From an uncultured Succinivibrio sp. (GTDB taxonomy: Bacteria > Pseudomonadota > Gammaproteobacteria > Enterobacterales > Succinivibrionaceae), in the NCBI GenBank assembly GCA_905186145.1, contig LR994470.1, positions 1,117,376-1,171,544 on the forward strand: 54,169 nucleotides of DNA. The letters run 5' to 3'. The translations under genes were made by a program, and so were the position numbers. The notes below the pieces were generated by a model that was not told the origin of the DNA, did not search any database, and saw only the letters and a list, made by a program, of their open reading frames with translations. This document shows positions 27,535-44,559 of the stretch, piece after piece (the stretch's first letter is position 1; each line of letters starts with the position of its first letter).

Positions 27535-30090
27535 GTGAAGAGAATGCTTATTAACGCCACGCAAATCGAAGAGGTTCGCGTAGCTCTTGTTGATGGTCAA
27601 AAGCTGTATGATCTAGACATTGAATCTCCACAGCATGCCAATAAGAAAGCCAATATCTACAAAGGAACGATTACTCGCATTGAGCCTAGTCTTGAAGCCG
27701 CTTTCGTTGATTACGGTGTAGAACGCCATGGTTTTCTGCCTTTAAAAGAAATTGCCCGTGAATATTATCCAGCAGGCATTAACTTTAACGATCACGCACA
27801 AGTACGTTCTGCTCTCAAAGAGGGCCAGGAAGTTATTGTTCAGATTGAAAAAGAAGAGCGCGGCCTTAAGGGTGCAGCTCTTACAACTTATATCTCTCTG
27901 GCAGGTAGCTACCTCGTGCTTATGCCAAATAACCCTCGTGCAGGCGGTATCTCCCGTCGTATCGAAGGTGAGGACAGAACCGATCTTAAAGCTGCTTTAA
28001 AGGGACTTACTATTCCTGATGGTATGGGCGTTATTGTCAGAACCGCAGGTGTTGGTAAAACCTCAGAAGAACTTGAGTGGGATCTTTCTATCTTAACTAA
28101 AGTTTGGGACATGATTAAAAAAGCAGCCTCAGGCCGCAAAGCCCCATTCTTAATTCACCAAGAATCTAATATCGCTTTACGCGCTATTCGTGATTATCTG
28201 CGTCCTGACATCGGCGAAATTTTAGTCGACAGTCCTGATAGCTTTGAGCAGATTAAGCACTATGTAGAGCTTGTACGTCCTGAGTTTACCTCCAAAGTGC
28301 ATCTTTACACTGGCAATATTCCGCTCTTTAGCAAATTCCAGATCGAAAGCCAGATTGATACTGCCTATCAGCGTGAGGTTCGCCTCCCTTCAGGCGGTGC
28401 TATCGTAATTGATCCTACCGAAGCTTTAACCTCTATTGATGTTAACTCTGCCAAGGCTACTCGTGGCGGTGACATTGAGGAGACTGCTTTACAGACCAAT
28501 ATCGAAGCTGCAGAAGAAATTGCTCGTCAATTACGTCTGCGCGATGTTGGTGGCTTAGTCGTTATCGATTTTATCGATATGACTCCACTTAAAAACCAGC
28601 GTGAAATTGAAAACAGAATGCGTGATGCTGTACGTCAAGATCGCGCTCGCATCCAGTTTAGTCGCATTTCCCGCTTTGGTTTATTGGAGATGTCCCGTCA
28701 GCGCTTAAGACCTTCTCTTGAAGAGTCAAGCTCTTACGTCTGCCCTATGTGTAACGGCCAGGGTACTTGCCGTGACACCTCTTCTTTAGCTCTTTCCATC
28801 TTAAGACTTATTGAAGAAGAAGCTCATAAGGAAAATATGGGTAATGTTAGCGCTACAGCCTCAGTTGAGGTTGCAACTTTCATGTTAAATGAAAAGCGCT
28901 CTCAGTTAGCTGATATTGAAAAACGTAACAATATCACTATTACCATCATTCCAAACAAATTCTACATGCCACATGAGTATGTAGTTGAGCGTCAGACTGT
29001 AGCTAACGAAACTCATCATAGCTCCTTAGACTCTCTGCGTGAGTTAAATAAGGCCGCTCGTGAAGAGGCTGAAAATGCTCGTGCCAATATCAAAACAGGA
29101 AAAGTAGCTGATGCAACCAAAGACAGCTCCCCTGCTTTAAATACTGACATCTTATCAACCGCTATCACAGCCCCAGCTCCAAAGCCTTCCTCAAAAAGAA
29201 AGCAAAAAGCTGAAGATGAGCATAAAAAAGTAGAACAGCCATCATCCATCATTACCTCAATTAAGAGTTTAATCTCTTCTATTTTTGGCGGTGGTGAGCA
29301 AAAGGATGAACCTGTAAAACCAGCTGAGACTAAAAAGCCACAGCGCTCTAATAACAATCGTCGTAATAACCGTAATAATCAGAAGAATAACTCTGAAAAA
29401 TCTGAGCGTAATGAGAATACCTCAAGACGTCGTCAGAGAAATAATGAGGAAAACTCTGAGAATAACGTAAAAGAGACTAAGAGCCGTCGCAACCGCTCTG
29501 AAAATAAGGTTGAAAAAGCTGAGAATGCAAATGCTAAGCCTCGTCGTAATAGCCGCAAAAATGCTGCTACTGAGGAAAGCTCTGAAAATACTCAGCCCCA
29601 GCCAATACAGCCTAAGAGCCGTCGCAACAACAAGTCTGAAAATGCTGAGGCTCCACAAAAACGTCAGCGCAAGCGCATTTCAAAGCCTGCTGTAGTAACT
29701 CAGGTTAAGGACGAGGAAAATACTGTTGTTTATACTCCTTATGAGTATAAAGAGCGTACCTATACCTTCGCTGAGAGTGCTCAAGGCGAGGACTTAAATG
29801 TTGATTTTACCCAAGAGGTAAAACAACGCAATTTAGATCAAGGCTATGAGTATGAACATGCTCAAAAGACCGGCTGTCTTACTGATGCTGAAATTGCTTC
29901 TTTAGAAGGTATCACCGAGCCTGTAATGTACCCTGTAGATTACACTCAAGTTCCATCCGAGCGCGACAATAACAATCTTGAAGACTTTGACAAGTCAGAA
30001 AGAGCTGGTGGTTTAAATGGTGCTTCTGAAAATGTAGCCACTACCTTCATCAATACCGTAGAAGATGGTGAAACCTACTTAAAAGACTAA
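27535..30090 (+). CDS. rne: Ribonuclease E (851 aa)
   Basis: [10 protein letters not shown] start (GTG), S1 domain, IDVNS and DFIDM catalytic Asp residues, CPMC Zn-link, amphipathic [16 protein letters not shown] membrane helix, Arg/Asn-rich CTD. Confidence 0.98.
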
Positions 30091-30108
30091 TTTGTAAATC
30101 ACACATAA

Positions 30109-30130
30109 AAGGGCAAGCTTAAAGCTTGCC
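30109..30130. repeat. Left copy of the 22-bp direct repeat; also a bidirectional terminator (rne/DeoR)
   Basis: AAGGGCAAGCTTAAAGCTTGCC, identical to 40862-40883. Confidence 0.9.
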
Positions 30131-30151
30131 CTTATTCTTATAGACTTTCAA

Positions 30152-30910
30152 TTAAACCAAAATTAGCTCAACGCCTAGTTTTATAATTTCATTAGCAACA
30201 TCTTTTGATAAACCATTATCTGTAATAATGGTATCTATTTCAGACAATTGTGCAACCTCATAAAGTTGGCTCTTTCCGTACTTACTACTATCTGCAACTA
30301 CAATTTTATGTGAGCTTACTTTCGCTAAATCCCGCTTTAAATTAGCTTTTTCTATTGTTGGAGCAGTAATGCCACAACGTAAATCCCACGCATTACAACT
30401 AATAAAAGTATAAGAAGGATGAATTGCATTAATTACTTCTCTAGCCTTATCTCCAATACAGGATTGAGAGGAGTTATCTATAGTACCCCCTGTTAAGCTC
30501 ACCTCTGACTTTGAATTACTATCTGCAAGCAAAATACCAATATGAAGATCTGTTGTAATAACCTTTAAAGGTACATCTATAAGACACCTTGCAATTTCAA
30601 TTGTTGTGGTTCCTGCATCAAATAAAACACTATCACCAGGTTTAATTAATTCAGCAGCTTTTTTTGCTATACGTAATTTTTGTTCATGATGCATTCTTTG
30701 CTTTTCTGATGTTGTTGGCTGTCTACTTGGAGAATCTTTTAAAGAAACACCTCCATGAACACGATAAACAGCCCCCGCTTTGTCTAATTTTATTAGATCT
30801 CGCCTAATAGTGGCAGGAGATGCCCCTGTTACATCTACAAGATCATCAACTGTTGCCAAACTTTTAGTTTTAAGAAACTCCAATATTTTTTCTTGACGGG
30901 ATACAAACAT
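30152..30910 (-). CDS. DeoR/GlpR (YgbI-like) transcriptional regulator
   Basis: SPATIRRDL, RVHGG and FDAGTTT motifs. Start set at ATG 30910 with GAGGA SD. Confidence 0.93.
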   Translation of the reverse strand: MFVSRQEKILEFLKTKSLATVDDLVDVTGASPATIRRDLIKLDKAGAVYRVHGGVSLKDSPSRQPTTSEKQRMHHEQKLRIAKKAAELIKPGDSVLFDAGTTTIEIARCLIDVPLKVITTDLHIGILLADSNSKSEVSLTGGTIDNSSQSCIGDKAREVINAIHPSYTFISCNAWDLRCGITAPTIEKANLKRDLAKVSSHKIVVADSSKYGKSQLYEVAQLSEIDTIITDNGLSKDVANEIIKLGVELILV

Positions 30911-30984
30911 ATCTAATCCTCGCATCATTATTTTTATTGCCTAATACATATATTATCAAATTTTTACTGCTTTAAGGATTATTT

Positions 30985-31000
30985 TGATTATAAACAATCA
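30985..31000. promoter_or_regulatory. Candidate DeoR operator 1
   Basis: TGATT-ATAAAC-AATCA (TGATT-N6-AATCA). Confidence 0.6.
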
Positions 31001-31035
31001 TTTTTATATTTTTTTTGATTAAATATTTTGAAATG

Positions 31036-31051
31036 CGTGATTATCTTCACG
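31036..31051. promoter_or_regulatory. CRP-like site
   Basis: CGTGA-TTATCT-TCACG with an A-rich left flank. Confidence 0.55.
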
Positions 31052-31063
31052 GTTTATATAATA

Positions 31064-31079
31064 TGATTGACTATAATCA
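31064..31079. promoter_or_regulatory. Candidate DeoR operator 2
   Basis: TGATT-GACTAT-AATCA. Confidence 0.6.
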
Positions 31080-31111
31080 CAAATGATGATTATTTATATA
31101 AGGTAATACAA

Positions 31112-33415
31112 ATGGATCTCAAACTTGCAATCATTGCAGATGATCTTACTGGAGCAAATGATAGCTCAGTACAATTTTCCACAAAAGGATTAAACACAGC
31201 AGTTGCCATTCCTGGAGCCGATATTTCGTGTATAAAAAATATCGAAGTATTGGTTTTAGATTGTGAAAGTAGAGATATTCCAAAAGATAACGCTTATTCA
31301 GCAGTTTTTTCAGCTACAAAAAAATTACTCAAATTAAACAACAAAATTAACATTTATAAAAAAGTAGACTCTACTTTAAGAGGTAATATTGGTGCTGAAT
31401 TAGAGGCCTTATATAAATCTTATGAACCATCTTTTATTGTTTTCGCCCCTGCTTTTATCGAAGGTGGCAGAACCACTATACATGGTTATCAATACCTGCA
31501 TGGAAAAAAACTTGAAGAGACAGAACTTGCAAATATTCCAAAGAGCCCTGTTACAAGTTCTTTTATTCCAGAAATTATTGCTAAACAAACAAATTTAAAA
31601 ACAGCTATATTAGATTTAAGTGTTATAAATCAAGGTGTTCATGCAATAGAAAACAGTTTACAAAAAATAATTAGTAGTGATATAAAAATCGTTATTTCAG
31701 ATGCAAAAAAAATAGAAGATCTTGATTTATTAGTAAATTGTTTACAAAAGTATGAAAAAGTAATTTATGCAGGATCCGCAGGTCTTGCAAAATCTTTATC
31801 AAAATTTATCCAATCTTCAAAAATTGAAGATGTGATTCCAAAAGCAAAAAAGATCTTGGTACTAGCAGGCTCAATAAGTGCAGTAACAAGATCTCAGTGC
31901 AAAAATCTTCTTAATTTAAGAAATGTAAAATTATTTGCCGCCGATCCTGTAGAAACAATAAAAAAAACAAATCTTTATGCTCAAAAAGTTTCACGTCAAA
32001 TAATAAATATGCAAAAAGACACCGATGTTATTTTAGTTTGTGGTGCCTTTAACGAAAATGACGTCCACAAAAGTTCCGAAGCAGGTTCTGAAATTGGGTT
32101 AAATTTCTTTGAATGTGGTGAGCGTATAGCTTGCTTTATGGCATCTTTAATGAATAGGTGCGCTGATTATTTCGATGCTTTTATCTTAACAGGCGGAGAT
32201 ACAGCTATACATGCGTGCAACTCTTGTGACGCAAATATACTAAAAATTTTAAAAGAAATTGAGCCTGGAATCCCACTTTTAAAAATAGCTTACGGCAAAC
32301 AAAAAGAAAAATACGTTATCACAAAAGCAGGTGCTTTTGGCAATCCACTTAGCTTAGTCAACTCAGTAAAAGTTCTATCTAACTCTTTAAAGAGGACCAC
32401 TATTATGAAAAAACCTACCATAGGTCTTACCATGGGAGATCCTGCTGGTATCGGCTCGGAGATTATTATTAAATCACTACAGGATCCCCAAATATATGAA
32501 AAAGCACGCCCTGTTGTATTCGGAGATGCTAAGCAGTTAAAACGTCTAATAAAAATTTTAAAATTGAATATCGACGTTCACAAAATAAACAACATAAAAG
32601 ACGCAAGCCCTTCTATAAATAGAATTGAAGTTGTAGATCTTGATAATGTTCCTGAAGATATTCCTTTTGGTCAAATAAATCCAATTTGTGGTAATGCAGC
32701 ATTTGAATATATTGAAGCAGCAATAAAGGCTCATCTTGCTCATCAAATACAAGCAATAGTTACAGCCCCTCTAAATAAAGAAGCTTTACATGCAGGAGGT
32801 CATAACTTTCCTGGACACACAGAGATTTTAGCTACTTTAACAGGAACTAAAGATTACTCAATGATGCTAGTAAGTCCAAAACTCAGAGTTATACATGTTT
32901 CGACTCATGTTTCTTTACGTGGTGCTTGCGATGCTTGTAAAAAAGAACGTGTCTATAGAGTAATAAAACTAGCTGACGACACCTTGAAACTTATGGGTTT
33001 TGAAAATCCTCGTATTGCAGTATCAGGATTAAATCCTCACTGTGGAGAACACGGATTATTTGGCAATGAAGATATAGAAGAAATTGTACCTGCTGTAGAA
33101 AAAGCTCAAGGTGAGGGCATAAATGTACAAGGTCCAATAGCTCCTGATACAGTATTTCATAGAGCCGCTAATAAAAACGAATTTGATATTGTCGTTGTTC
33201 AATACCATGACCAAGGACATATTCCACTTAAAGTATTAGGTTTTAGCTCAGGTGTAAATATTACAGTAGGCCTTCCTATTATTAGAACATCTGTTGACCA
33301 CGGAACCGCTTTTGAAATTGCAGGAAAAGGTATAGCAGATTCTGAATCAATGACTGCCGCCATGGAGATAGGAGCACAAATGGCTTCTGTCAAATTTGCT
33401 AACGAATTAATTTAA
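31112..33415 (+). CDS. Fusion: DUF1537 four-carbon acid sugar kinase (DtnK-like) + PdxA2 4-phospho-tetronate dehydrogenase
   Basis: N-half IIADDLTGAND, YKKVDSTLRG, TGGDT and TKAGAFG; C-half TMGDPAGIG, GHTE, HVSTH, GLNPH, YHDQGH and RTSVDHGTAF. Start set at ATG 31112 (AAGGT SD). Internal AGAGGA SD and in-frame ATG at 32405. Confidence 0.9.
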   Translation: MDLKLAIIADDLTGANDSSVQFSTKGLNTAVAIPGADISCIKNIEVLVLDCESRDIPKDNAYSAVFSATKKLLKLNNKINIYKKVDSTLRGNIGAELEALYKSYEPSFIVFAPAFIEGGRTTIHGYQYLHGKKLEETELANIPKSPVTSSFIPEIIAKQTNLKTAILDLSVINQGVHAIENSLQKIISSDIKIVISDAKKIEDLDLLVNCLQKYEKVIYAGSAGLAKSLSKFIQSSKIEDVIPKAKKILVLAGSISAVTRSQCKNLLNLRNVKLFAADPVETIKKTNLYAQKVSRQIINMQKDTDVILVCGAFNENDVHKSSEAGSEIGLNFFECGERIACFMASLMNRCADYFDAFILTGGDTAIHACNSCDANILKILKEIEPGIPLLKIAYGKQKEKYVITKAGAFGNPLSLVNSVKVLSNSLKRTTIMKKPTIGLTMGDPAGIGSEIIIKSLQDPQIYEKARPVVFGDAKQLKRLIKILKLNIDVHKINNIKDASPSINRIEVVDLDNVPEDIPFGQINPICGNAAFEYIEAAIKAHLAHQIQAIVTAPLNKEALHAGGHNFPGHTEILATLTGTKDYSMMLVSPKLRVIHVSTHVSLRGACDACKKERVYRVIKLADDTLKLMGFENPRIAVSGLNPHCGEHGLFGNEDIEEIVPAVEKAQGEGINVQGPIAPDTVFHRAANKNEFDIVVVQYHDQGHIPLKVLGFSSGVNITVGLPIIRTSVDHGTAFEIAGKGIADSESMTAAMEIGAQMASVKFANELI

Positions 33416-33455
33416 TTATTTTTAAATTAAATATTTCAAAAATATGGAGTTTTTG

Positions 33456-34337
33456 ATGTTTAAACCATATGGAATAATTACACCTGTTTTAACAGCTTTA
33501 GACGACAAAGAAAATTTTAATAAAGAAGCATATCAAAAATTTATCGATAAACTCATTAAAGCTGGTGTTCACGGAATTTTTGCCTTAGGGACTAATGGTG
33601 AATTCTACGCATTTAATGCTGAAGAAAAAATAGAAATAATTAAAGCAGCTCGCGAGGCTGTAGATGGCCGTGTACCTTTCTATGCTGGAACTGGATGCAT
33701 TACTACTAAAGAAACCATTGAACTTACAAAAGAAGTTGAGGCTTTAGGTGGTGTTGATTGCCTATCAATTATATCCCCATACTTTGTTGGCATTTCGCAA
33801 GACGATCTTTATCGTCATTTTAAGGATGTATCAAAATCAACTTCATTACCTGTTCTTCTTTACAATATTCCAGCAAGAACCGGAAACAATATTGATTATA
33901 AAACAGTAAAAAAATTAGCCGCAGAATGTCCTAATATCATTGGTATCAAAGATAGTTCAGGTAATTTTGACAATACACTCAAATATATTGAAAACACAGA
34001 TCCTCGTTTAAACGTATTAGCCGGATCTGATTCTTTGATTTTATGGACATTACAAGCAGGTGGAACTGGATCTATTTCCGGATGCTCAAATGTTTTCCCT
34101 GAACTTATGGTTTCTATATATAACCTATGGAAAGAAGGCAAATTTGTTGAAGCAAATGAGGCTCAAAAAAAGATTCGTCCATTTAGAAATGTTATGCAAA
34201 TGGGAAATCCAAACTCTGTTGTAAAACGAGCTTCTGATTTATTAGGAAATGGAACTGGTCCTGCTAGATCTCCATCCAATATAAACAATAAAGCTATTGA
34301 TGAGGCTTTACTTGAAGTCTTTAAACTCTACAAGTAA
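33456..34337 (+). CDS. DapA/NanA (DHDPS/NAL) family lyase/aldolase
   Basis: GTNGE, LYNIP (Tyr) and IGIKDSSG (Schiff-base Lys). Start set at ATG 33456 (GGAG SD). Confidence 0.9.
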   Translation: MFKPYGIITPVLTALDDKENFNKEAYQKFIDKLIKAGVHGIFALGTNGEFYAFNAEEKIEIIKAAREAVDGRVPFYAGTGCITTKETIELTKEVEALGGVDCLSIISPYFVGISQDDLYRHFKDVSKSTSLPVLLYNIPARTGNNIDYKTVKKLAAECPNIIGIKDSSGNFDNTLKYIENTDPRLNVLAGSDSLILWTLQAGGTGSISGCSNVFPELMVSIYNLWKEGKFVEANEAQKKIRPFRNVMQMGNPNSVVKRASDLLGNGTGPARSPSNINNKAIDEALLEVFKLYK

Positions 34338-34353
34338 TGGAATGAGGTAGAAA

Positions 34354-35520
34354 ATGTCCATATATTCCCAAACTTCCATTAGACGCATTATTGGCGGAGA
34401 AGGATCTATTTCGCAATCTTACGATATTGCTAAATCTTTTAATGCAAAAAATGTTGTTTTAATAACAGATAAAGTTGTCTACGAATTAGGATTAACTAAA
34501 ACCGCCGAAGAATATTTGGCAAAGGCCGGTTGTAATATACACATAATAAACGATGTTCCACCAGAACCTTCAGTAGCGCAAGTAAACCACATTTATGAAC
34601 AAGCAAAAGCTGTTGATTGTGATTTGTTAGTAGCTATTGGTGGTGGCTCATCCATGGATACTACAAAATTAGTTTCTTTATTATTAACAAACTCTATTTC
34701 TTTGGTTGAAATGGTTAAAGGAGCCAAACCTTCAAACAAAGGAATTCCAACATTATTTGTACCAACAACAGCAGGAACAGGATCAGAAGCTACGCCAAAT
34801 GCCATAGTTTTAGTTCCTGACGAAAATTTAAAAGTTGGAATTGTATGCGATTTTGAGGTTGCTGATGCTGTTATATTAGATCCAAATTTAACAAAAGATC
34901 TTCCTAAACCTATCACAGCAAATACCGGTGTTGATGCACTTTGCCACTTAATGGAATGTTTTATTTCAAAAAAATCAAATCCATTATCTGATGCTTTTGC
35001 TATTGCTGGAATAAAACTAGTTGGGGAAAGTTTAAGAGAATGTTATAAAAACGGCTCCAACCTAGTTGCACGTGAAAAAATGCTATTAGCATCGTGTTAT
35101 GGTGGTATATGCATAGCATCATCATCCACAACAGCAATACATGCTCTATCATACCCTTTAGGGGGACGCTATCACATTCCACATGGTTTATCTAATGCTA
35201 TTTTAATGCCTTTAATAATGGACTTTAACAAAGACTATTGTAAAGAAAAATATTGCATTATGGCTCAAGCTTTTGGATTAGAAACAACCGGTAAAACAAA
35301 AGATGAAATAGCTCAACAATTTGTTGAAGAACTATACTCTCTAAATCGAGATTTAAATATTAAATGCGATTTAAAAGCTGTTGGTGTTACAGAAGATGTA
35401 ATATCATCTTTAGTTGACGGAGCCTCTAAAGTAACAAGATTATTAAATAATAACCCTAAGCCTTTAAGCAAAAGTGATATGTACAAAATTTATGAAAATT
35501 TGTTAAAAGCTAATGCTTAA
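34354..35520 (+). CDS. Iron-containing alcohol dehydrogenase family protein
   Basis: GGGSSMD, PTTAGTGSE, DALCH and HALSYPLG...HIPHG motifs. Confidence 0.93.
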   Translation: MSIYSQTSIRRIIGGEGSISQSYDIAKSFNAKNVVLITDKVVYELGLTKTAEEYLAKAGCNIHIINDVPPEPSVAQVNHIYEQAKAVDCDLLVAIGGGSSMDTTKLVSLLLTNSISLVEMVKGAKPSNKGIPTLFVPTTAGTGSEATPNAIVLVPDENLKVGIVCDFEVADAVILDPNLTKDLPKPITANTGVDALCHLMECFISKKSNPLSDAFAIAGIKLVGESLRECYKNGSNLVAREKMLLASCYGGICIASSSTTAIHALSYPLGGRYHIPHGLSNAILMPLIMDFNKDYCKEKYCIMAQAFGLETTGKTKDEIAQQFVEELYSLNRDLNIKCDLKAVGVTEDVISSLVDGASKVTRLLNNNPKPLSKSDMYKIYENLLKANA

Positions 35521-35526
35521 AAAAAC

Positions 35527-35559
35527 AAACGCCTTGTGATTAATATACAAGGCGTTTTT
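35527..35559 (+). terminator. Intrinsic terminator after Fe-ADH
   Basis: AAACGCCTTGT...ACAAGGCGTTT followed by T run. Confidence 0.8.
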
Positions 35560-35647
35560 CTTACAAATTCATATTAAATCACCTCATTTTAAATAAACTA
35601 CAATAATATCAATATATTAGTGCACGTATTTTTTTATAAATCAATAT

Positions 35648-35663
35648 TGATTTATAATAATCA
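35648..35663. promoter_or_regulatory. Candidate DeoR operator 3 (upstream of the TRAP operon)
   Basis: TGATT-TATAAT-AATCA, same geometry as 30985 and 31064. Confidence 0.5.
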
Positions 35664-35919
35664 TATTTATTATTAAGCAATCATTTTTTCTTAAAAAAAA
35701 CATCAAAAAATATAAAAAAACACATTTTTTTATTAAAAATAGTACTCATTTATACCCATAACTAATAAGAAATCATTACTTATAAATTTGTATTATCTTT
35801 TTAAGATTGTTATTAAACAAATAACAATTTTGTCGTTATAAATTATCAAGTTAATTTCAAACAACAATCACAAAATAACTTTAATTTATAGAAAAAAATA
35901 AATATGAAAAATATTTTTG

Positions 35920-35935
35920 CGTGATATAAATCATA
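35920..35935. promoter_or_regulatory. CRP-like site upstream of the TAXI SBP
   Basis: CGTGA-TATAAA-TCATA; shares TGCGTGAT with the 31036 site. Confidence 0.4.
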
Positions 35936-36048
35936 ATTTAATCATAAAAAATAATTTTTGATTAAAAATACTACTATACTTCTTAACATAAAAGATCAAA
36001 GACATCTTTACTAATAAAATCAAACATTCAAATAGAGGGTATTAAGTT

Positions 36049-37080
36049 ATGGCTTTAACATTAAAAAAAATCTCTGTTGCATGCGCTATTGCTACTTTTT
36101 CTTTATATTCAGGATTTGCCCAAGCCGCACCAGCTCCACTCACAGAGCCTGTAAAATTGACTTTTGCAGCTCAAGAAGTTGGAACAGCTGCTTATAACTA
36201 TGCAAGCGCTCTGCAGGCAGTAATGATTAAAGGATTACCTGAAGGCTCCTCTATCAATATTACAACTTCATCTCCTGGAGCTGTAGGCGCTCCTATTATC
36301 GTAAATGGTGGAAAAAAAGCTGACATCATTATGTCAAACTCTGCCCCTGCTCGTTGGTCTTACGAAACAGGCATTTTAGGCAAAGCTCCTACCAAAAATA
36401 TTGCCTCTTTAGGTGGTGGTTTTGGCCATGATTTTGTAAACGTAATGTTTACTCAAAAATTTGTTGAAAAAACTGGTATCAAAACCATTGAAGATTTAGT
36501 TGCACAAAAATACCCTGTAAAGATTGTTATTAAAAAGAATGGTTCTTTAGGAGAACTTTCTGCAGAAAAGGTCTTTGAAGCTTTAGGTGTCACTTTTGAT
36601 GATATTGAAAAATGGGGCGGTGTAGTTGAAAAAACTGGTGGCGATGCCATTAAATCAGGTCTTCAAGATGATATCTATGATATGACTATTGATCACATTG
36701 GTGCAGGTCAATCAAACACAACAGAATTATGTTTGACACATGATATGTATGACGTTCAATTGGCTGACTCTACTTTACAAAAATTAGTCGATATGGGTTA
36801 CGACTATGTCGAAGTTGCTCCTAATACTTGGAAAGGTCAAGAAACTGCTATTAAATCAGTTGGCTCTCAACAAGAGGTATTAGTTTCTACTTCTATGGAT
36901 GAATCCGTAGCTTATGCTTTAACAAAAGCAATCATCGAAAATAAAGATGAATTATCACAAGCAGTTTCAGCTATGAAATATTTTGCCCCTCAAACTGCCG
37001 GAACTAAAGCTATCACTGGCGTAGATTTACATCCAGGTGCAGCAGCTTACTACAACGAAAAAGGATTACCTTCTAAATAG
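36049..37080 (+). CDS. TAXI family TRAP transporter solute-binding protein
   Basis: Signal peptide AQA; GTAAY-type N-terminal motif and DLHPGAAAYYNEKG C-terminus; adjacent fused permease. Confidence 0.88.
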   Translation: MALTLKKISVACAIATFSLYSGFAQAAPAPLTEPVKLTFAAQEVGTAAYNYASALQAVMIKGLPEGSSINITTSSPGAVGAPIIVNGGKKADIIMSNSAPARWSYETGILGKAPTKNIASLGGGFGHDFVNVMFTQKFVEKTGIKTIEDLVAQKYPVKIVIKKNGSLGELSAEKVFEALGVTFDDIEKWGGVVEKTGGDAIKSGLQDDIYDMTIDHIGAGQSNTTELCLTHDMYDVQLADSTLQKLVDMGYDYVEVAPNTWKGQETAIKSVGSQQEVLVSTSMDESVAYALTKAIIENKDELSQAVSAMKYFAPQTAGTKAITGVDLHPGAAAYYNEKGLPSK

Positions 37081-37089
37081 TAAGTAAAT

Positions 37090-37117
37090 AAAGAAGGTGT
37101 AATTTAACACCTTCTTT
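37090..37117 (+). terminator. Hairpin between SBP and permease (partial terminator or mRNA stabiliser)
   Basis: AAAGAAGGTGT-N6-ACACCTTCTTT; a second hairpin lies at 37148-37184. Confidence 0.65.
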
Positions 37118-37238
37118 CAATTGAAATTTATAGATAAAAATTCTTTTAACGGTATTTAGTAATTAGCCAAATATAAATACCGTTTTTTATCTTCATAAAC
37201 TTTTATTTGTTCATCAAACACTGAAAAAAAGGTTCATC

Positions 37239-39215
37239 ATGTCAGAACAAAAAAGATCTTGGCGCTTTTACGCACTTATTGCAGTAACCATCGCCTTCTT
37301 TGGCTTTCAGATGTATTTAGCACTTGTAAAGCAACTAACACCTATGCTGCAAAGTCCTTTGCACCTTGTATTGGCATTAGCTGTAATATTCTTAGTCTAT
37401 CCTACAGATCGTAAATATCGTGATAATCTCAAGCGCAAAACTGAATTAAACGGCACATCTTTAACTGACGATCTTTTAAATAAATTTAAATGGACCCGTT
37501 TTTTTGACATTTTTTCTTTTGCCGGAATTGCATTGCTTTTCTACTACTGCATCACAGAGTATGAAAGATTGGCAAATTTTACCCCATTTATTGATGAAGT
37601 ATTTCCTTTAGATATAACAGTAATGATTGTTACTATTGTTCTCTTACTTGAAGCTGTAAGAAGAACTTTAGGAAATATTCTTTACTTCTTTATCATTGCA
37701 TTCATTGTATTTGCATGGATTTCTCCTTGGTTGCCAGGAATTTTCTTCACAAAAGGCCTACCTTTTAATGAAATGCTTGACCAATTTACTATTGGTATGA
37801 CCATGGCAGAGCAAGGTGTATTTGGAACTCCTTTATATACTTCAGCCTCTGCTCTTTTCTACTTCATTGTTTTTGGCGTTTTCTTTTCCGAATGCGGTGG
37901 AGGACAACTCCTCATTGACATTGGTATGAAATTTTCAAATAAGTCATCAGGAGGACCTGCTAAAGCTGCCGTTATCTCATCCGGTCTTATGGGCATGGTT
38001 TCAGGCTCTGCCGTAGCTAACGTTTCTACAACCGGAGTTATGACAATTCCAATGATGAAAAAAATTGGTTATCTACCTCAAGAAGCAGGCGCAATTGAAG
38101 CTGTAGCTTCTACTGGTGGACAAATCATGCCTCCTATTATGGGTGTAGGAGCTTTCATCATGGCAGAAATGCTTGGTATACCTTATTTCGATGTTGCTGC
38201 AGCAGCATTACTTCCTGCTTGTGCTTTCTACTTTGGCGTATTCGTTTTAGTTTCTTGTTTAGCCCGCAAGCGTGCTGCCAGATCTAATACTGGAGAAGAC
38301 GTTAAAATTGAAGTAAAACAACCTATATTACCTAGACTTTATCTATTATTACCAGTAATTCTTTTGGTAACTTGGATCATTAGTGGATCTTCATTAATGC
38401 GTTCAGGAATGGTTGGTATTTTTGCCATATTATTATTAAATATTGTCAGCTACTTTGTTGGCAAAAAACAAAACTTTGTAAATATCAAAAGATTAGGAGA
38501 TTGTTGCGTTAGAGGCGTAAAACAAGCTGCTTCTATTGCTATTCCTACTGCAGCTTGCGGTATTATCATCAATGTTGTAACAGGACAAACTTCTTTAGCA
38601 ACAAATCTGTCAGGTTTAATTGGGTCTCTTGGTGTAGACTACCTTTTTGTTGCATTATTAATTGCTATGATTGGTTGTATGGTATTAGGTATGGCCTTAC
38701 CAACTGTAGCAGCTTACTTAGTTGGAGTAATATTATTCGTTCCTGTTATTAGAAGCTTAGGAGTTGATGCTCTTTGTGCCAATATGTTTGTATTTTACTA
38801 TGGCATTATGGCTCAAATTACCCCTCCTGTTTGTGTCGCATCCTATACTGCAGCTGGTATTGCAGGAGCTGATGCAATGAAAACCGGCATCAACGGCATG
38901 TTATTTGCATTAGTTGGATTTATGGTACCTTTCGTATTCATTTACAATCCAGCAATATTACTTGAAGGATCAATAATCGAGATTGTTTTAGGCGGCATCC
39001 AATTGATGATCGGCACTTATTTCTTGGCTATTACTGTATCTGGTTTCTGGAAAACACATATACCTGTTTGGCAAAGACTCATTACATTTGGTGTAAGTAT
39101 TGGCTTCATTATTCCAGAAGCAACATCATCAATTATCGCTCTGATTGTAGGCTTTGGAGTATTGTCATTAAACTTCATAGCATTTAAAAAGTTGCCATCA
39201 AAAGTAGGTGTGTAG
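37239..39215 (+). CDS. TRAP transporter 4TM/12TM fused permease (TAXI-associated)
   Basis: GGPAKAAVISSGLMGMVSGSAVAN, ASTGGQIMPP, GMALPT and ITPPV motifs. Confidence 0.92.
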   Translation: MSEQKRSWRFYALIAVTIAFFGFQMYLALVKQLTPMLQSPLHLVLALAVIFLVYPTDRKYRDNLKRKTELNGTSLTDDLLNKFKWTRFFDIFSFAGIALLFYYCITEYERLANFTPFIDEVFPLDITVMIVTIVLLLEAVRRTLGNILYFFIIAFIVFAWISPWLPGIFFTKGLPFNEMLDQFTIGMTMAEQGVFGTPLYTSASALFYFIVFGVFFSECGGGQLLIDIGMKFSNKSSGGPAKAAVISSGLMGMVSGSAVANVSTTGVMTIPMMKKIGYLPQEAGAIEAVASTGGQIMPPIMGVGAFIMAEMLGIPYFDVAAAALLPACAFYFGVFVLVSCLARKRAARSNTGEDVKIEVKQPILPRLYLLLPVILLVTWIISGSSLMRSGMVGIFAILLLNIVSYFVGKKQNFVNIKRLGDCCVRGVKQAASIAIPTAACGIIINVVTGQTSLATNLSGLIGSLGVDYLFVALLIAMIGCMVLGMALPTVAAYLVGVILFVPVIRSLGVDALCANMFVFYYGIMAQITPPVCVASYTAAGIAGADAMKTGINGMLFALVGFMVPFVFIYNPAILLEGSIIEIVLGGIQLMIGTYFLAITVSGFWKTHIPVWQRLITFGVSIGFIIPEATSSIIALIVGFGVLSLNFIAFKKLPSKVGV

Positions 39216-39216
39216 C

Positions 39217-39660
39217 ATGATTATTGATAAATTAAACAATATCTTATTCTATAAAAGCCTGCTTCCTAATATAGAAAATGGCTTAGAAAAACTCAAAATA
39301 ATTAACTTGGATTCTGTAGGTAAATATGAATTTGATGGAGGTTTTTTAATAATCCAAGAAGGTAATACAAAACCACTTACAGAAGGAACATACGAAGCTC
39401 ATAAAAAATTTATAGACATTCAAATTATGTTAGATGGTAGTGAAGAATTAGCTTGGGACGATCTACAAGATCTTATCGAGTGCATTCCTTATAACGAAGA
39501 AAAAGACGCTACTAGATATAAAGGAAAGCTAGAACATACTATAAAAATTACAAAAGGAATGTTTTACATAGCTTTTCCTCATGATGGACACAAGCCTGTT
39601 TCTCATCAAGAAACTCAGCAGCATTTCAAAAAAATTATTATGAAATTACCTGTAGCCTAA
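39217..39660 (+). CDS. YhcH/YjgK/YiaL (DUF386) family protein
   Basis: EAHKKFIDIQ and FPHDGHKP motifs. Start set at ATG 39217 (AGGTG SD). Confidence 0.9.
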   Translation: MIIDKLNNILFYKSLLPNIENGLEKLKIINLDSVGKYEFDGGFLIIQEGNTKPLTEGTYEAHKKFIDIQIMLDGSEELAWDDLQDLIECIPYNEEKDATRYKGKLEHTIKITKGMFYIAFPHDGHKPVSHQETQQHFKKIIMKLPVA

Positions 39661-39685
39661 GTTCAAACAAATTATGGAGAACAAA

Positions 39686-40846
39686 ATGGAATTACCACAC
39701 TTACAGAGCTTATCGACAGATGGTAAACTTTATATAAACGATGATATGTGCACTATTGAGGCTATGATTCCTCCAGGAAACTACAAATCAGCACACGCTC
39801 CTGCACTTTTAGAAATGCCTTCAGGAGATATTCTTTGTGCTTGGTTTGCAGGATCATTTGAGGGAAGTGCTGATGTAAGTATTGTGTGTGCCCGTTTAAA
39901 AAAAGATACCACCTCTTGGGAAGCTCCTGTAAAAGTATCCGTTGATCCTCACAGATCTGAACAAAATCCTTCTCTGTTTTTAGGACCTGATGGTTTGATT
40001 TGGGCTATGTATACAGCACAATTAGATAGAGTTCCTGGAAAAGATAATATGCAATTCACTTCCCAAGTAAGGCTACAAAAATCATCTGATGGTGGCCAAA
40101 GTTGGAGCGAATTTGAAACAATATTCCCTAAAGAGGGAACTTTCTGTCGCCAGCCAATTCAAGTATTAAAAAATGGTCGTTTTATATTTGGAAACTGGCT
40201 TTGCACTGATTCCCAAAATGGATTAGAAGGGGATCCTTCTGTATTCAAAATCTCTGATGATCAAGGAAAGACTTGGCGTGAAGTTGAAATGCCTGAAAGT
40301 TCAGGTGTTGTACACCCAAATGTTGTTGAACTTGAAGAAAATCATTTAATTGCTTTTATGCGTAGCCGAGCTGCAGACTTTATTTATAAGTCAGAAAGTT
40401 TTGATAATGGAGATCATTGGTCAATACCTGAACCAACTGTTTTACCAAATAACAACTCTAGTATAAGTGCATTAAAGTTAAAATCAGGCAGAATTGCTAT
40501 AGCTTACAATCCTACTCATGCACCTAATGCGCAAAAAGGAAATGTAGCCTGGCCGGGATTGCGATGCCCTGTTGCAGTTGCTTTATCAGAAGATGGTGGT
40601 AATACTTTCCCTATGATTCGTTTAATGGAGCGCGGAGAAGGTTTCTGCGGCAAAGAAAATACAACAAATAACAAACAATACGAATACCCATATCTCATGC
40701 AAAGCAAAGATGGTCGTTTACATTTAGCTTTTGCTTATAAAAACCGCATTGGCATAAAGTATATGAGCTTTACAGAAGAAGATATAACAGGAATAAAACG
40801 TGAAACTGTTGGCTTATATAACCCAACAGCAGCTCAAAGTCGTTAA
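39686..40846 (+). CDS. BNR/Asp-box beta-propeller, sialidase-like fold, cytoplasmic, non-canonical active site
   Basis: Four Asp boxes (SSDGGQSW, SDDQGKTW, SFDNGDHW, SEDGGNTF) and YEYP. No signal peptide, no RIP motif. Start set at ATG 39686 (GGAG SD). Confidence 0.85.
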   Translation: MELPHLQSLSTDGKLYINDDMCTIEAMIPPGNYKSAHAPALLEMPSGDILCAWFAGSFEGSADVSIVCARLKKDTTSWEAPVKVSVDPHRSEQNPSLFLGPDGLIWAMYTAQLDRVPGKDNMQFTSQVRLQKSSDGGQSWSEFETIFPKEGTFCRQPIQVLKNGRFIFGNWLCTDSQNGLEGDPSVFKISDDQGKTWREVEMPESSGVVHPNVVELEENHLIAFMRSRAADFIYKSESFDNGDHWSIPEPTVLPNNNSSISALKLKSGRIAIAYNPTHAPNAQKGNVAWPGLRCPVAVALSEDGGNTFPMIRLMERGEGFCGKENTTNNKQYEYPYLMQSKDGRLHLAFAYKNRIGIKYMSFTEEDITGIKRETVGLYNPTAAQSR

Positions 40847-40861
40847 CAATTTGTTATACAT

Positions 40862-40883
40862 AAGGGCAAGCTTAAAGCTTGCC
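40862..40883. repeat. Right copy of the 22-bp direct repeat; also a bidirectional terminator (BNR / ydfG-like)
   Basis: AAGGGCAAGCTTAAAGCTTGCC, identical to 30109-30130, followed by T8. Confidence 0.9.
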
Positions 40884-40909
40884 TTTTTTTTACCTTATAA
40901 AATATAAGA

Positions 40910-41686
40910 TTATTTTTTCTCTAGATCTAAATTACGAGTAACGCTCAGACCACCAAAGGTTTGGCACACAGGCATCATCTCCATAGTATTAATGTTTAAA
41001 TGAGCTGGGGTGTTAAGTAACCACAGCACTGTATTGGCAATATCCTCAGGTAAGATTGATTCTGTTTTGTCGTAAATTGATAAAACTTTTTCCTTATCAT
41101 TATTTAAACGTACATAAGAGAACTCAGTATCTTGGCAAAGTCCTGGTTTTATAACAGTTACCTTTACAGCACTACCTGCAGTATCACATCTTAAATTGCG
41201 GCTAAATTGCTCCACAAAAGCTTTGGTTGCGCCATAGACATTGCCACCTGAATAAGGCCAATTACCGGCAGTTGAGCCTAAGTTAATAATATAACCACAA
41301 TTGCGCTTTATCATATTTGGCAAAATAGCATTAGTCATAGCTAAAAGACCTGTAATATTAGTCTCAACCATAGTCTTCCAATTTGCCATAGAGCAGTTTT
41401 GAGCCCTATCAACCCCCAATGCAAGACCTGCATTATTAACTAATACATCAATAGTCTTAAATTCTTCAGGAAGAGAGTCTAAAAGAGCTGGAATTTTTTC
41501 AACATCACGCACATCCAAAGCTAAAGGATAAATTTTTCCTGGAAATGCGTTTGCCAAAGATTGCAGTTTCTCTAAACGTCGTGCAAGAGCCACGACTTTA
41601 AAACCATTTGTAGCTAAAGTTTCGCAAATAGCTTTACCAAAACCTGCAGAAGCTCCGGTTACTAAAACTGTTTTGTAATTTGACAT
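40910..41686 (-). CDS. ydfG: YdfG-like NADP-dependent 3-hydroxy acid dehydrogenase (SDR)
   Basis: TGASAGFG, NNAGLALG, GGNVYGATK, PEDIA and PAHLNIN motifs. Confidence 0.82.
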   Translation of the reverse strand: MSNYKTVLVTGASAGFGKAICETLATNGFKVVALARRLEKLQSLANAFPGKIYPLALDVRDVEKIPALLDSLPEEFKTIDVLVNNAGLALGVDRAQNCSMANWKTMVETNITGLLAMTNAILPNMIKRNCGYIINLGSTAGNWPYSGGNVYGATKAFVEQFSRNLRCDTAGSAVKVTVIKPGLCQDTEFSYVRLNNDKEKVLSIYDKTESILPEDIANTVLWLLNTPAHLNINTMEMMPVCQTFGGLSVTRNLDLEKK

Positions 41687-41974
41687 ATAAAAGCTCTCTT
41701 AAGTTAAGTTGATTAAAGATGATTTTAATATTCAAAATATAAAAATTTATAAAACATATTTTTAAAGTATAACTAAAAAAATATATTTTATAAAAAATAT
41801 ATTTTTCAAATAGTTACATTTTAAATTAAATATTTAGTTTTAAAATTTACATAAATAAACAAATATTTTGTTAAGTAGGGTTAATTTTATCTTTATTATA
41901 TTTTTTATCTTGTGAAATAACCTTGCTATTTTGAGTACAATATAACTATCCTAAACTAAAATGTAAGTATCATT

Positions 41975-43852
41975 ATGGATCAATCTTTACTTCCGAATAT
42001 TTACGATTTTATATCGCACACTTATCCTTTCTCCCAACTTGACACTCTTGCCAAAGACGCCGTAGCTACCGCCGTAAAAATTTCCTACCACAGCCCAGAT
42101 GACGTGCTTGATAATGAACAATTAACCGGTGCTGGCCTTTACATGGTGCGTGTTGGTGCTGCAGAGGAAATAAATAAATCAGATAACTCCCTGCGCGCTC
42201 GTTTAGGCGTAGGTGATAGCTTTGGTTATTCCCAAATCAATAAACAAGGCGAAAGTGATTACAAAATCACTTTCCTTGAGAATACCCTTTTATATTTCAT
42301 CAGCAAGCAAATGTTGCAGTTTTTGATTAACAAAAACAAAACTGTTGGTGAATATTTCAACTCCAAAGAATGGGTTAGACTTTCATCTACTCATAAAAAT
42401 AATGAAGAGAGTAATACTATTCCTTCATTTACAGAAAGAACTGTATCGTCTGTATGCTCAACTGATGTGGTAATCATCAATGAAGAGACCACTATTCAAA
42501 ATACAGCCTTGCAAATCTCGCAAATGCATACTGACGTAGCATTAATTAGCAACGATAACAGCACCTTACAAGGTATTGTTACTAAAAGTGATATTACCGC
42601 AAGAGCCGTTGCTACAGGACTTGATATTAAACGCCCGATTCGGGACATTATGTCACGTACAGTTTTAACTGTAGATGGTAAACGCCCAATCTATGATGCT
42701 CTTGAGCTTATGGTTATGCACAACATTAAGTGCTTACCTGTATTAGATGGCAATAAGATCATAGGTACCGTTACTACCCGTCAGCTTTTAACTCACAGCC
42801 AGTTACAAGCTGTTTATTTAAATAAAGATATTCAAAACGCTCCAGATCTTGAAAAACTTATAAAAATCTCAAAACACAAAAAAGAGGTGTTTGAGACTTT
42901 AGTTGAAACTGGTGTTGAGCCACGCATTGTACAAAAGGTAATGTCACACTTTTGTGATCTCTACTGCCAGAGGATTTTACAGTTAGCTGAGGAAAATTTT
43001 GGTAAAGCTCCTTGCGCTTATGCCTTTGCCGCAGCAGGCTCTTTAGCTCGTAATGAGGTTCAGTTCTTATCTGATCAAGATAACTGCATTATCACCGAGC
43101 GCGATCTTACAGAAACAGAACGCAAGTACTTTGCTGATTTAAGCGATTTTGTTTGCAAGAGTTTAGATAAATGTGGCTATCCTTTATGCGATGGTCATTT
43201 CATGGCTTGCAATCCAAAGTGGTGCCAGGGATATAGTACTTGGACTCATTATTATGACTCTTGGATATCAAATACCAATGAAGATGCTATCTTAAATAGC
43301 TCTGTATTCTTAGATATGCGTTGTCTTTATGGAGATGAATTCTTAGTTACTAAATTAAGACAGCATTTAATAAAAGCTGTAGCTTCAAATAGTCGCTTCT
43401 TAGCTACTTTAATGAAGATTTCAGCTAATGTAACCCCTCCTATTGGCACCTTTAGACAATTTGTGCTTACCAAAGATGGTAAGAACAATCCAAGTCTTAA
43501 TATTAAAAAACAAGCAATTAATCTTATTGTAGAGATTGCTCGTTTATATGGTTTGTCTGCAGGTACTTTAAAGTGTGATACTTACTTACGCCTTGAAGAT
43601 GCGGTTAAACATGATTTAATTAAAGAAGATGAGTTCCGTGAACTTTATGAAGCTTATACCTTCTTAAATAAAGTTCGTTTTAAACATCAATTACAATCTT
43701 TAAAATCAGGCTCTCCAATGTCAAATCATTTAGAGCCTTCTGTATTAAGTCAGTTTGAACGCAACCACTTACGCGATGCTTTCCGTATTATTGCAAGACA
43801 TCAACAAGCAGCTTTATTTAGATTTACAGGCGGTATAGGAATTTTAGGTTAA
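41975..43852 (+). CDS. cNMP-binding/CBS-pair/DUF294 putative nucleotidyltransferase (GlnD/GlnE-like NTase fold)
   Basis: N-terminal cNMP-like domain, two CBS repeats (GIVTKSDI, GTVTTRQL), GSLAR.E...SDQDN NTase motif, LDMRCLYGD and DUF294_C helical domain. Confidence 0.88.
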   Translation: MDQSLLPNIYDFISHTYPFSQLDTLAKDAVATAVKISYHSPDDVLDNEQLTGAGLYMVRVGAAEEINKSDNSLRARLGVGDSFGYSQINKQGESDYKITFLENTLLYFISKQMLQFLINKNKTVGEYFNSKEWVRLSSTHKNNEESNTIPSFTERTVSSVCSTDVVIINEETTIQNTALQISQMHTDVALISNDNSTLQGIVTKSDITARAVATGLDIKRPIRDIMSRTVLTVDGKRPIYDALELMVMHNIKCLPVLDGNKIIGTVTTRQLLTHSQLQAVYLNKDIQNAPDLEKLIKISKHKKEVFETLVETGVEPRIVQKVMSHFCDLYCQRILQLAEENFGKAPCAYAFAAAGSLARNEVQFLSDQDNCIITERDLTETERKYFADLSDFVCKSLDKCGYPLCDGHFMACNPKWCQGYSTWTHYYDSWISNTNEDAILNSSVFLDMRCLYGDEFLVTKLRQHLIKAVASNSRFLATLMKISANVTPPIGTFRQFVLTKDGKNNPSLNIKKQAINLIVEIARLYGLSAGTLKCDTYLRLEDAVKHDLIKEDEFRELYEAYTFLNKVRFKHQLQSLKSGSPMSNHLEPSVLSQFERNHLRDAFRIIARHQQAALFRFTGGIGILG

Positions 43853-44559
43853 TGAGTATTTTCGACAATCCCCTTGTCAAACTGCAAAAACAGTGTAAAA
43901 AAGCAGCACAAGATGAAAATCTTAGTAAAGAGCTTAGATCTTTTTATGAAAGAGAAATGCCTAAGCCTGATGCTTTAATCAAAGATCTAAAACTTACGTC
44001 TATTGATTTTGAGACCACCGGTCTCAACTTTCAGGAGGACGTAGTTTTATCTATGGGAGGCATTAGCTTAGATAGCGGTAGAATCGACTTTTCAACATCT
44101 TTTCACAAGATCTTAAGTGTCGATCCTAAAAAGATTAAGTCAAATGCTGCTGTTATAAATCAAATTACTCCTGAACAATTAATTGATGGTGCAACCCCTC
44201 ATAAAGCTTTTATGGAACTTATGGATAAGCTCTCAGGAGGATTGGTTTTAACTCATTGCAAGGTGATTGAAAGTACTTTTTTAAGAAATGCCTTAAAAAT
44301 ACCCGATAAATATCCTTTGCCGATGGTGTTTTTAGATACTATGGCAATTGAGAAATATTTGCTCTCTCACAGAGGCTCATATAAACCTGATGATGTGCGC
44401 TTAAATAAAATTCGTGAACGTCGAGGTCTTCCTGCCTATGAAGCGCATAATGCCTTAGCTGACAGTTTAGCTACAGCCGAAGTTTTTTTAGCGCAATTAC
44501 ACGATATTTTTGGCAAAAATCCACATATTCTCAAAAAAGTTTATAAACTCTGTTGCTAA
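43852..44559 (+). CDS. DEDDh 3'-5' exonuclease (DnaQ-like), translationally coupled to the NTase
   Basis: IDFETTG, HCKVIE and AHNALAD motifs; TAATG stop/start overlap at 43850-43854. Confidence 0.9.
   Translation: MSIFDNPLVKLQKQCKKAAQDENLSKELRSFYEREMPKPDALIKDLKLTSIDFETTGLNFQEDVVLSMGGISLDSGRIDFSTSFHKILSVDPKKIKSNAAVINQITPEQLIDGATPHKAFMELMDKLSGGLVLTHCKVIESTFLRNALKIPDKYPLPMVFLDTMAIEKYLLSHRGSYKPDDVRLNKIRERRGLPAYEAHNALADSLATAEVFLAQLHDIFGKNPHILKKVYKLCC

Follow-up and report, generated by a model that had tools for sequence, protein, structure and literature searches.

We describe here a 10.7-kb segment of the genome of an uncultured Succinivibrio sp. (Succinivibrionaceae; GenBank assembly GCA_905186145.1, contig LR994470.1) that lies just behind the RNase E gene rne and is bracketed by two identical copies of a 22-bp palindrome, each of them a predicted transcription terminator. 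The stretch of DNA analysed (hereafter the window, whose numbering is used throughout) comprises 54,169 nucleotides, positions 1,117,376 to 1,171,544 of the forward strand of the contig, and the segment in question, here called the island, occupies positions 30109 to 40883 of it. What lies between rne and the next conserved gene is an insertion specific to this lineage. The island is a new example of a known, unexplained kind of insertion, the insertion with long target duplication, and its site is a gene-gain hotspot of an ordinary sort. As for its history, we see about an even chance that there were two arrivals, a foreign short-chain dehydrogenase (SDR) gene first and then an acid-sugar gene cluster that entered at the terminator shared by rne and the SDR gene, with the hairpin duplicated on insertion. 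The mechanism is not revealed by this case alone, and nothing suggests present-day mobility.

A predicted terminator hairpin in two copies

The initial annotation reported an exact 22-mer, AAGGGCAAGCTTAAAGCTTGCC, at both ends of the island, and the two copies, at 30109-30130 and 40862-40883, are indeed identical; no such match is expected by chance (0 in 100 shuffles). The 22-mer is a perfect 10-1-10 palindrome, and each copy lies tightly between two gene ends. The left copy begins 18 nt past the stop codon of rne and is 18 nt from that of deoR, the first cargo gene, and the right copy is 15 nt past the stop codon of the last cargo gene, which encodes a BNR_2 protein (BNR hereafter), and 23 nt from that of the ydfG-like SDR gene. 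Each copy was also said to be preceded by ACATAA. This is true of the left copy; the right copy is preceded by ACAT only, and the AA that follows it there belongs to the 22-mer, that is, the two sites differ by a 2-nt indel in an A-run. The repeat is 22 bp long when exact identity is counted, and matches at 26 of 28 positions with ACAT and the 2-nt indel included. Its edges are sharp, and sequence likeness beyond the 22-mer is not significant in either flank; a longer, degenerate repeat around it was rejected on that ground.

The host genome is one contig of 2,038,865 bp with 36.6% GC, and the whole of it holds only these two copies of the 22-mer, at ≤2 mismatches and likewise at ≤4 substitutions. 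The caution that the palindrome might belong to a REP-like family of host terminators is not borne out by this count, and the hairpin that ends the tRNA operon (GCAGCTTTAAGCTGC at 52775) is a different one. A census of perfect hairpins in the genome (stem ≥8 bp) found 1,224 distinct ones, among which the 22-bp pair is the sole duplicate that consists of the hairpin only; all other multi-copy hairpins sit within longer repeats, namely insertion sequences (IS), rRNA and tRNA genes, and gene duplications. Across a metagenome collection the exact 20-mer of the hairpin has four matches, in unrelated organisms (37-58% GC, with no genes in common), and it was not found in viral contigs. The hairpin was not found in the corresponding gene cluster or locus of any relative, and no genome but this one has a second copy of a similar hairpin. 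In a collection of this vast size such hairpins can form independently of one another, but chance would not place two of them within 10.7 kb of a single genome.

Each copy had further been proposed to act as a bidirectional terminator, for rne and deoR on the left and for the BNR and SDR genes on the right. Both pairs of genes do converge, and both copies are called terminator-like on both strands (all four combinations of strand and copy), with folding energies of -13 to -21.7 kcal/mol, which agrees with the prediction as far as sequence goes. In the metatranscriptome runs screened, the fraction of matching sequence words was 0.00. An Rfam search of the region matched no RNA family at the hairpins. 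The left copy has an A4 tract upstream, and its U-tract is weak on the plus strand (CUUAUUCUUAU) and good on the minus strand (UUUUAUGUGUGA). The right copy is identical in 16 other contigs of the same species, where only the length of the T-run varies; this run (40884-40891) is T8 in most contigs, T7 in 2 of the 16 and T9 in run X47.

The outer and inner flanks of the two copies differ in quality. Joining the left flank of the left copy (TL) to the right flank of the right copy (TR) gives CACACATAAAA-GGGCAAGCTTAAAGCTTGCC-TTTTTTTTACC, with the core AAAA-hairpin-TTTTTTTT, and these rejoined outer flanks make what by sequence is an ideal bidirectional terminator, built like the rne terminators of the sister species. 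The cargo-side flanks (…TTATACAT and CTTATTCTTATAG…) give weak U-tracts. Because the host-side flanks are ideal and the cargo-side flanks weak, the hairpin looks host-born, and its second copy looks like a by-product of the insertion.

The rne-DUF294 interval and the history of its insert

The genes that flank the insert are conserved. RNase E is 55-90% identical across 68 family loci, and its homologues place the window among the Succinivibrionaceae, with Succinatimonas/Succinivibrio-like gut and rumen bacteria. On the right the first conserved gene (41975) encodes a DUF294/CBS protein and is followed by an RNase T-type partner. There are 39 relatives in which rne and the DUF294/CBS gene lie on one contig, and in 35 of them, the closest sisters G005 and G004 included, the DUF294/CBS gene and its partner come directly after rne, with a gap of 137-443 bp. 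Thus, the DNA from about 30091 to 41900, including the ydfG-like SDR gene, is lineage-specific in this comparison, which was made between species and not strains. Each relative species has its own terminator after rne, built of an A-tract, a hairpin and a T-tract, and the sisters' hairpins are unrelated to the 22-mer. The empty site that the initial annotation predicted, with rne converging on the ydfG-like gene across a single terminator, is seen in no genome among the relatives; these have rne and then, directly, the DUF294/CBS gene instead.

The SDR gene, which had been taken for the host-side neighbour of the island, lies outside the repeat-bounded segment and inside the lineage-specific insert. 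Its product is 79% identical to the copy in G008, a more distant species, and 64-69% identical to the copies in the sisters G002, G004 and G005, whose neighbouring genes are 90-95% identical. The three sisters keep their SDR gene elsewhere, at a conserved site equivalent to 512.6-514.9 kb in the present genome, and in no relative does an SDR homologue lie beside rne, the DUF294 gene or the BNR cluster. The SDR gene is a xenolog, and foreign at the rne site. The sisters' SDR site is occupied here by an IS3-family element (G000:C1:512615-514919; inverted repeats TAGTATGAACCCCGTTATTGATCAC), and the island-side xenolog is the only SDR copy in the genome; this looks like loss by IS insertion together with xenologous replacement.

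Homologous modules of the island cluster (65-80% identity) are present in 16 of the 43 other genomes of the genus, in several gene orders and never beside rne, and BNR homologues at 65-75% identity are likewise found in 16/43. The BNR cluster was not found in the four closest sisters, nor in G008. Its nearest relative is in G088, and the nearest relative of the SDR gene is in G008, another species. On parsimony the cluster was probably gained in this lineage. In G084 (L117:4719-6673) a BNR homologue and the distal two-thirds of an iron-containing alcohol dehydrogenase (Fe-ADH) homologue overlap by 10 bp on opposite strands, an abutment that looks like a deletion remnant of the cluster.

In this clade of the Succinivibrionaceae the interval between rne and the DUF294/CBS gene has repeatedly gained genes, and the present comparison documents it as a hotspot of gene gain. 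In G008 (L178:3150-15756, contig C201) it holds a different 12.6-kb acid-sugar cluster, with genes for LysR, MFS, a TIM-barrel isomerase, a class II aldolase, a DUF1537 kinase, BKACE, DctPQM, a racemase, DeoR and a sulfatase fragment. At L095 the filling is 6.9 kb with ATP-grasp and transglutaminase genes, and in G002 it is 1.3 kb with a degraded IS200-like tnpA pseudogene (L033:13160-13560; Y1_Tnp, 29 bits). Hotspots between core genes that lack mobile elements have been documented, and their content is typically exchanged through homologous recombination in the flanks (Oliveira, Touchon, Cury and Rocha 2017, PMC5635113). The rne-DUF294 interval resembles them in being one core-gene interval with different accessory content by species and no recognisable mobile elements; unlike them, it is seen across the species of a genus and not among strains, with no turnover within the species. 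The hotspot concept gives no expectation of a duplicated terminator.

Within the species we surveyed assemblies from eight runs in five studies, together with about 50 contigs whose SDR or DUF294 protein is the identical one. The island occurs in 8/8 runs at >99.8% identity, with single contigs that span both junctions, and all of the about 50 contigs show the same neighbourhood. Neither a skip joint (30130 to 40884) nor an island-free contig occurs in the eight runs or the roughly 50 assembled contigs, where contigs may hide rare forms; the suggestion that the island is excisable thus finds nothing in its favour. Two low-coverage assemblies have contig breaks inside the left hairpin. Run X20 differs at 4 positions in the left flank, 15 in the island and 4 in the right flank, or about 1.3-1.4 per kb throughout, and this equal density of single-nucleotide polymorphisms (SNPs) inside and outside means that the island shares the history of its flanks. 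No intermediate lineage was seen, in that no DUF294 protein falls between 82% and about 99.7% identity among 5.8 billion proteins and cluster members. The island is fixed in the species, hence old enough for fixation, and is apparently immobile, no longer or never a working mobile element. At 37499, in the TRAP permease gene, a contig of run X35 ends and runs into AAGTGATCAATAACGGGGTTCATACTA, the inverted repeat of the same IS3-family element; in this one strain the transporter gene of the island thus seems to be interrupted by an IS.

The eight cargo genes are all metabolic or regulatory, with no mobility gene among them by Pfam and NCBIfam profiles, which upholds the initial finding that no integrase or transposase is inside. 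The 528-bp inner spacer has no open reading frame of note and no Rfam match, and so no hidden mobility gene. The genome as a whole has four tyrosine recombinases (PF00589), at 347-350 kb, 1866 kb and 2032 kb; two of these are non-Xer integrases, and the nearest is >750 kb from the island (1147-1158 kb). Both a Y1 transposase (PF01797) and ComEC are absent from the genome; on these grounds mobilisation by an IS200/IS605 element or a REP-associated tyrosine transposase (RAYT) was rejected, and so was natural transformation as the route of entry. The perfect palindrome is also unlike the imperfect subterminal hairpins with guide sequences of IS200/IS605 elements and palindrome-associated transposable elements (PATEs).

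How the hairpin may have been duplicated

Nowhere else are the SDR gene and the cluster linked, and their nearest relatives differ, which favours two separate arrivals. In the first step the foreign ydfG-like SDR gene would have been placed convergent with rne, so that the two shared the terminator AAAA-GGGCAAGCTTAAAGCTTGCC-TTTTTTTT. In the second, the 10.7-kb acid-sugar regulon would have inserted exactly at this hairpin, in a recombinase-independent (illegitimate) event that put the 22-bp hairpin on both sides. The second copy could stem from breaks staggered across the two feet of the hairpin and filled in afterwards, or from a replication template switch that re-copied the hairpin. Either route would yield the present structure, and both the order of the steps and the molecular mechanism are what we infer from it. 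Each copy would now end one host-side gene and one cargo gene, and selection for termination would therefore favour keeping both.

Given that the repeat is unique, that its identity ends abruptly and that any recombinase is lacking, an insertion with long target duplication is the best fit. Insertion at, and duplication of, a terminator hairpin had been proposed in the initial annotation, and it is the best available reading of the lineage-specific insert, the unique pair and the rejoined terminator. Insertions with long target duplication were reportedly described by Nobusato et al. 2000. The published class consists of inserts <20 kb that carry no mobility genes and are flanked by a duplicated, genome-unique target that often overlaps the 3′ end of a gene, and the screen of Furuta, Abe and Kobayashi (2010) required a duplication of >30 bp (PMC2853133). 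The island agrees with this class in its size (<20 kb), in having no mobility gene, in its absence from the site in related genomes, and in its direct repeats, which are otherwise unique in the genome and lie at the 3′ end of a gene. It is unlike the class in that its cargo is a catabolic regulon and not a restriction-modification system, that its 22-26 bp repeat, compared with the >30 bp of the screen, coincides exactly with a terminator hairpin, and that its host lacks ComEC, most published cases being in naturally competent species. It thus adds a catabolic example, other than restriction-modification, to a poorly understood class. If the duplication arose at insertion, the case shows how a horizontally acquired operon can enter a tight convergent junction and leave the expression of the essential rne gene undisturbed, a ready-made terminator being inherited by both sides.

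Several points weigh against two arrivals with target duplication. Neither an rne-hairpin-SDR intermediate nor a single-copy hairpin is found in any genome, and the duplication of the target is therefore deduced and not observed. The repeat, at 22 bp, or 26 bp once ACAT and the A-run indel are counted in, is shorter than the published >30 bp, and the mechanism of the published class is itself unknown (PMC2853133). None of the other hotspot fillings (G008, L095 and G002) has a duplicated hairpin around it, which would make the event a one-off. The case is also weakened by the chance, if a small one, that the whole 11.9 kb arrived in one step.

The event might be one instance of a general and still undescribed route, by which DNA that carries no recombinase gene enters where an intrinsic-terminator hairpin has its feet, with duplication of that hairpin. 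A structure-specific nuclease of the host, or an enzyme acting in trans, could make the cuts, which would be staggered by exactly the length of the hairpin, and the cargo and both neighbours would automatically keep a terminator; the present island, in which the duplication is the hairpin alone, would be the minimal version. We find such generality rather doubtful.

Arrival of the whole 11.9 kb (cluster and SDR gene) in one piece is the alternative that we rank next, and we consider it unlikely. The hairpin would then have been duplicated either in the lineage of the donor or afterwards, in a local event that had nothing to do with the entry of the cluster. The insert could have come, for instance, from a donor strain in which it was already present, through homologous recombination in rne and the DUF294 gene. 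Consistent with this, the cluster and the SDR gene are both missing from this site in all relatives, hotspots typically turn over in this very manner (PMC5635113), and SNP density is equal in the island, the SDR gene and the flanks. Against these stand the facts that SDR gene and BNR cluster are neighbours in no relative, that they point to different nearest relatives (G008 for the SDR gene and G088 for the cluster), and that the genome is without ComEC; moreover, a single arrival merely shifts the origin of the repeat elsewhere.

It is also unlikely, in our judgement, that a circular element integrated here, site-specifically or in the manner of Campbell through short homology, with the 22-bp palindrome as its att core. 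The BNR gene and deoR would have converged on the palindrome in the circle, and the integrase would have acted in trans or been lost, leaving a decayed element like the cis-mobilisable elements (CIMEs) or mobilisable genomic islands (MGIs). The cargo is indeed bounded by exact direct repeats of att-like length, and two non-Xer tyrosine integrases are encoded elsewhere in the genome; no integrase lies in or beside the island itself, and the nearest is more than 750 kb off. The order of the island genes is a circular permutation of that in G101, where the BNR gene and deoR converge, an argument to which we give little weight since cluster order is too variable among species. The 20-mer is absent from viral contigs, which leaves a phage or plasmid att site without support, and the hairpin is absent from every relative's cluster. 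When the junctions are reconstructed, the "attP" is a poor terminator on both strands and the "attB" an ideal one, and neither a circle nor an empty-site joint is present in the contigs of the eight strains, in which the island is fixed. Tyrosine-recombinase cores usually hold an asymmetric overlap region of 6-8 bp, and the perfect 10-1-10 palindrome has none. More broadly, the island is like CIMEs, MGIs and the Xer-dependent integrative mobile elements (IMEX) in that short exact direct repeats bound a cargo without a recombinase of its own. It is unlike them in several respects: neither a cognate integrase nor a partner element came to light, the insertion is not at dif or in a tRNA gene, nothing points to excision, and the repeat is a perfect palindrome and a predicted terminator.

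Two arrivals with target duplication have also to be set against the idea that the palindrome is a propagating terminator module, like a REP sequence or a miniature inverted-repeat transposable element (MITE), or a convergently favoured one, that settled independently behind rne and behind the BNR gene, so that the bracket is a coincidence. We regard this as very unlikely. A third, similar hairpin (GGGCAAGCTTAAGCTTTGCCC, 3 mismatches) does lie between ahpC and ahpF (genome position 1300621), a place taken in the sisters by another hairpin, AAGGCTTCGCTAAGCGRRGCCTT, and palindromes based on AAGCTT recur in the host genome. A hairpin within 3 mismatches is, however, present in 10 of the 43 other genus genomes, and the flanks of the ahpC-ahpF hairpin have only marginal similarity to those of the island copies (p about 0.02-0.05); for these reasons we treat it as background. 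Exact copies number only two, no other genome has two, and the genome encodes neither a RAYT nor a Y1 transposase. REP sequences, bacterial interspersed mosaic elements (BIMEs) and Correia elements are similarly GC-rich extragenic palindromes at convergent gene ends, which serve as terminators, and differ in occurring in tens to hundreds of copies (versus two here); a RAYT is missing here. Next to the third hairpin, ahpC is tandemly duplicated (G000:C1:1298922-1300641; a 1074-bp unit with identical products of 194 aa), and the lineage-specific hairpin GGGCAAGCTTAAGCTTTGCCC follows.

An assembly artefact or chance identity is hardly conceivable, the former being refuted by the same structure in independent assemblies (eight runs, five studies) and in polished long-read contigs of 1.9-2.1 Mb, with single contigs across both junctions, and the latter by the 0/100 shuffles that match.

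Cargo genes and surroundings

The cargo, to judge from its domain content, is very probably a regulon for the uptake and catabolism of an acid sugar (Table 1). The island was initially described as more AT-rich and of different codon preference. A mild drop stands, with 33.8% GC compared with 36.6 +/- 2.4% for the genome, and GC at third codon positions (GC3) of 0.18-0.26 in the cargo compared with a genome median of 0.277; the deviation is not a strong one, and GC and tetranucleotide distance both put the island at the 8.6th percentile. Strong compositional foreignness was accordingly rejected.

Table 1. Features of the rne-DUF294 interval and its borders (positions in the window)
Feature	Position	Strand	Basis and remarks
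rne (RNase E), conserved left flank	27535..30090	+	Pfam RNase_E_G, thioredoxin-like domain, S1
Left hairpin copy (TL), AAGGGCAAGCTTAAAGCTTGCCCTT	30109..30133		Predicted bidirectional terminator of rne (+) and deoR (-)
DeoR/AgaR-type repressor, first cargo gene	30152..30928	-	Pfam HTH_DeoR, DeoRC; NCBIfam AgaR/SrlR-like, below cut-offs
DUF1537 four-carbon acid-sugar kinase and PdxA-type 4-phospho-dehydrogenase fusion	31067..33415	+	Pfam SBD_N, NBD_C, PdxA; NCBIfam D-threonate kinase-like and D-threonate-4-P dehydrogenase-like matches, below cut-offs
DapA/NanA-family (DHDPS) aldolase or dehydratase	33444..34337	+	Pfam DHDPS
Iron-containing alcohol dehydrogenase (Fe-ADH)	34354..35520	+	Pfam Fe-ADH, ADH_Fe_C
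AT-rich spacer and promoter region between the two cargo operons	35521..36048		GC 0.247 in the 35001-36000 bin, which holds most of the spacer
TAXI-family TRAP solute-binding protein	36049..37080	+	Pfam NMT1_3; TIGR02122 above cut-off
Fused TRAP permease (DctQM)	37239..39215	+	Pfam DctM; TIGR02123 TRAP_fused above cut-off
YhcH/YjgK/YiaL (DUF386) protein	39208..39660	+	Pfam DUF386; TIGR00022
BNR_2 (sialidase-fold) protein, last cargo gene	39674..40846	+	Pfam BNR_2, 3e-60
Right hairpin copy (TR), AAGGGCAAGCTTAAAGCTTGCCTTT, then T-run	40862..40886		Predicted terminator of BNR (+) and SDR (-)
YdfG-like short-chain dehydrogenase (SDR)	40910..41686	-	Pfam adh_short; YdfG-like, 330 bits against a cut-off of 411
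AT-rich divergent promoter spacer	41687..41974		Last ~60 bp conserved in relatives, the right edge of the insert
DUF294/CBS nucleotidyltransferase and RNase T-type exonuclease genes, conserved right flank	41975..44559	+	Pfam families

The kinase and PdxA-type parts of the fusion protein are encoded by two separate adjacent genes in G019 and G010, at 47% identity for the kinase part and 75% for the PdxA part, and in G088 the PdxA gene begins on its own beside the TAXI gene. Near the hotspot, an autotransporter gene (44797-48417 and beyond) varies by strain, encoding 1267 aa, 1314 aa, or 980 plus 240 aa, and in some strains (L182, L183) an ISL3 transposase gene lies between it and the inositol-phosphatase gene. 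Far from the island, the repeat scan of the genome also found a CRISPR-like array at G000:C1:444900-447250, with a repeat of about 36 nt (GCTAATAGCTTTATTAAATTTCTACTTATGTAGAT) and a spacing of about 60 nt.

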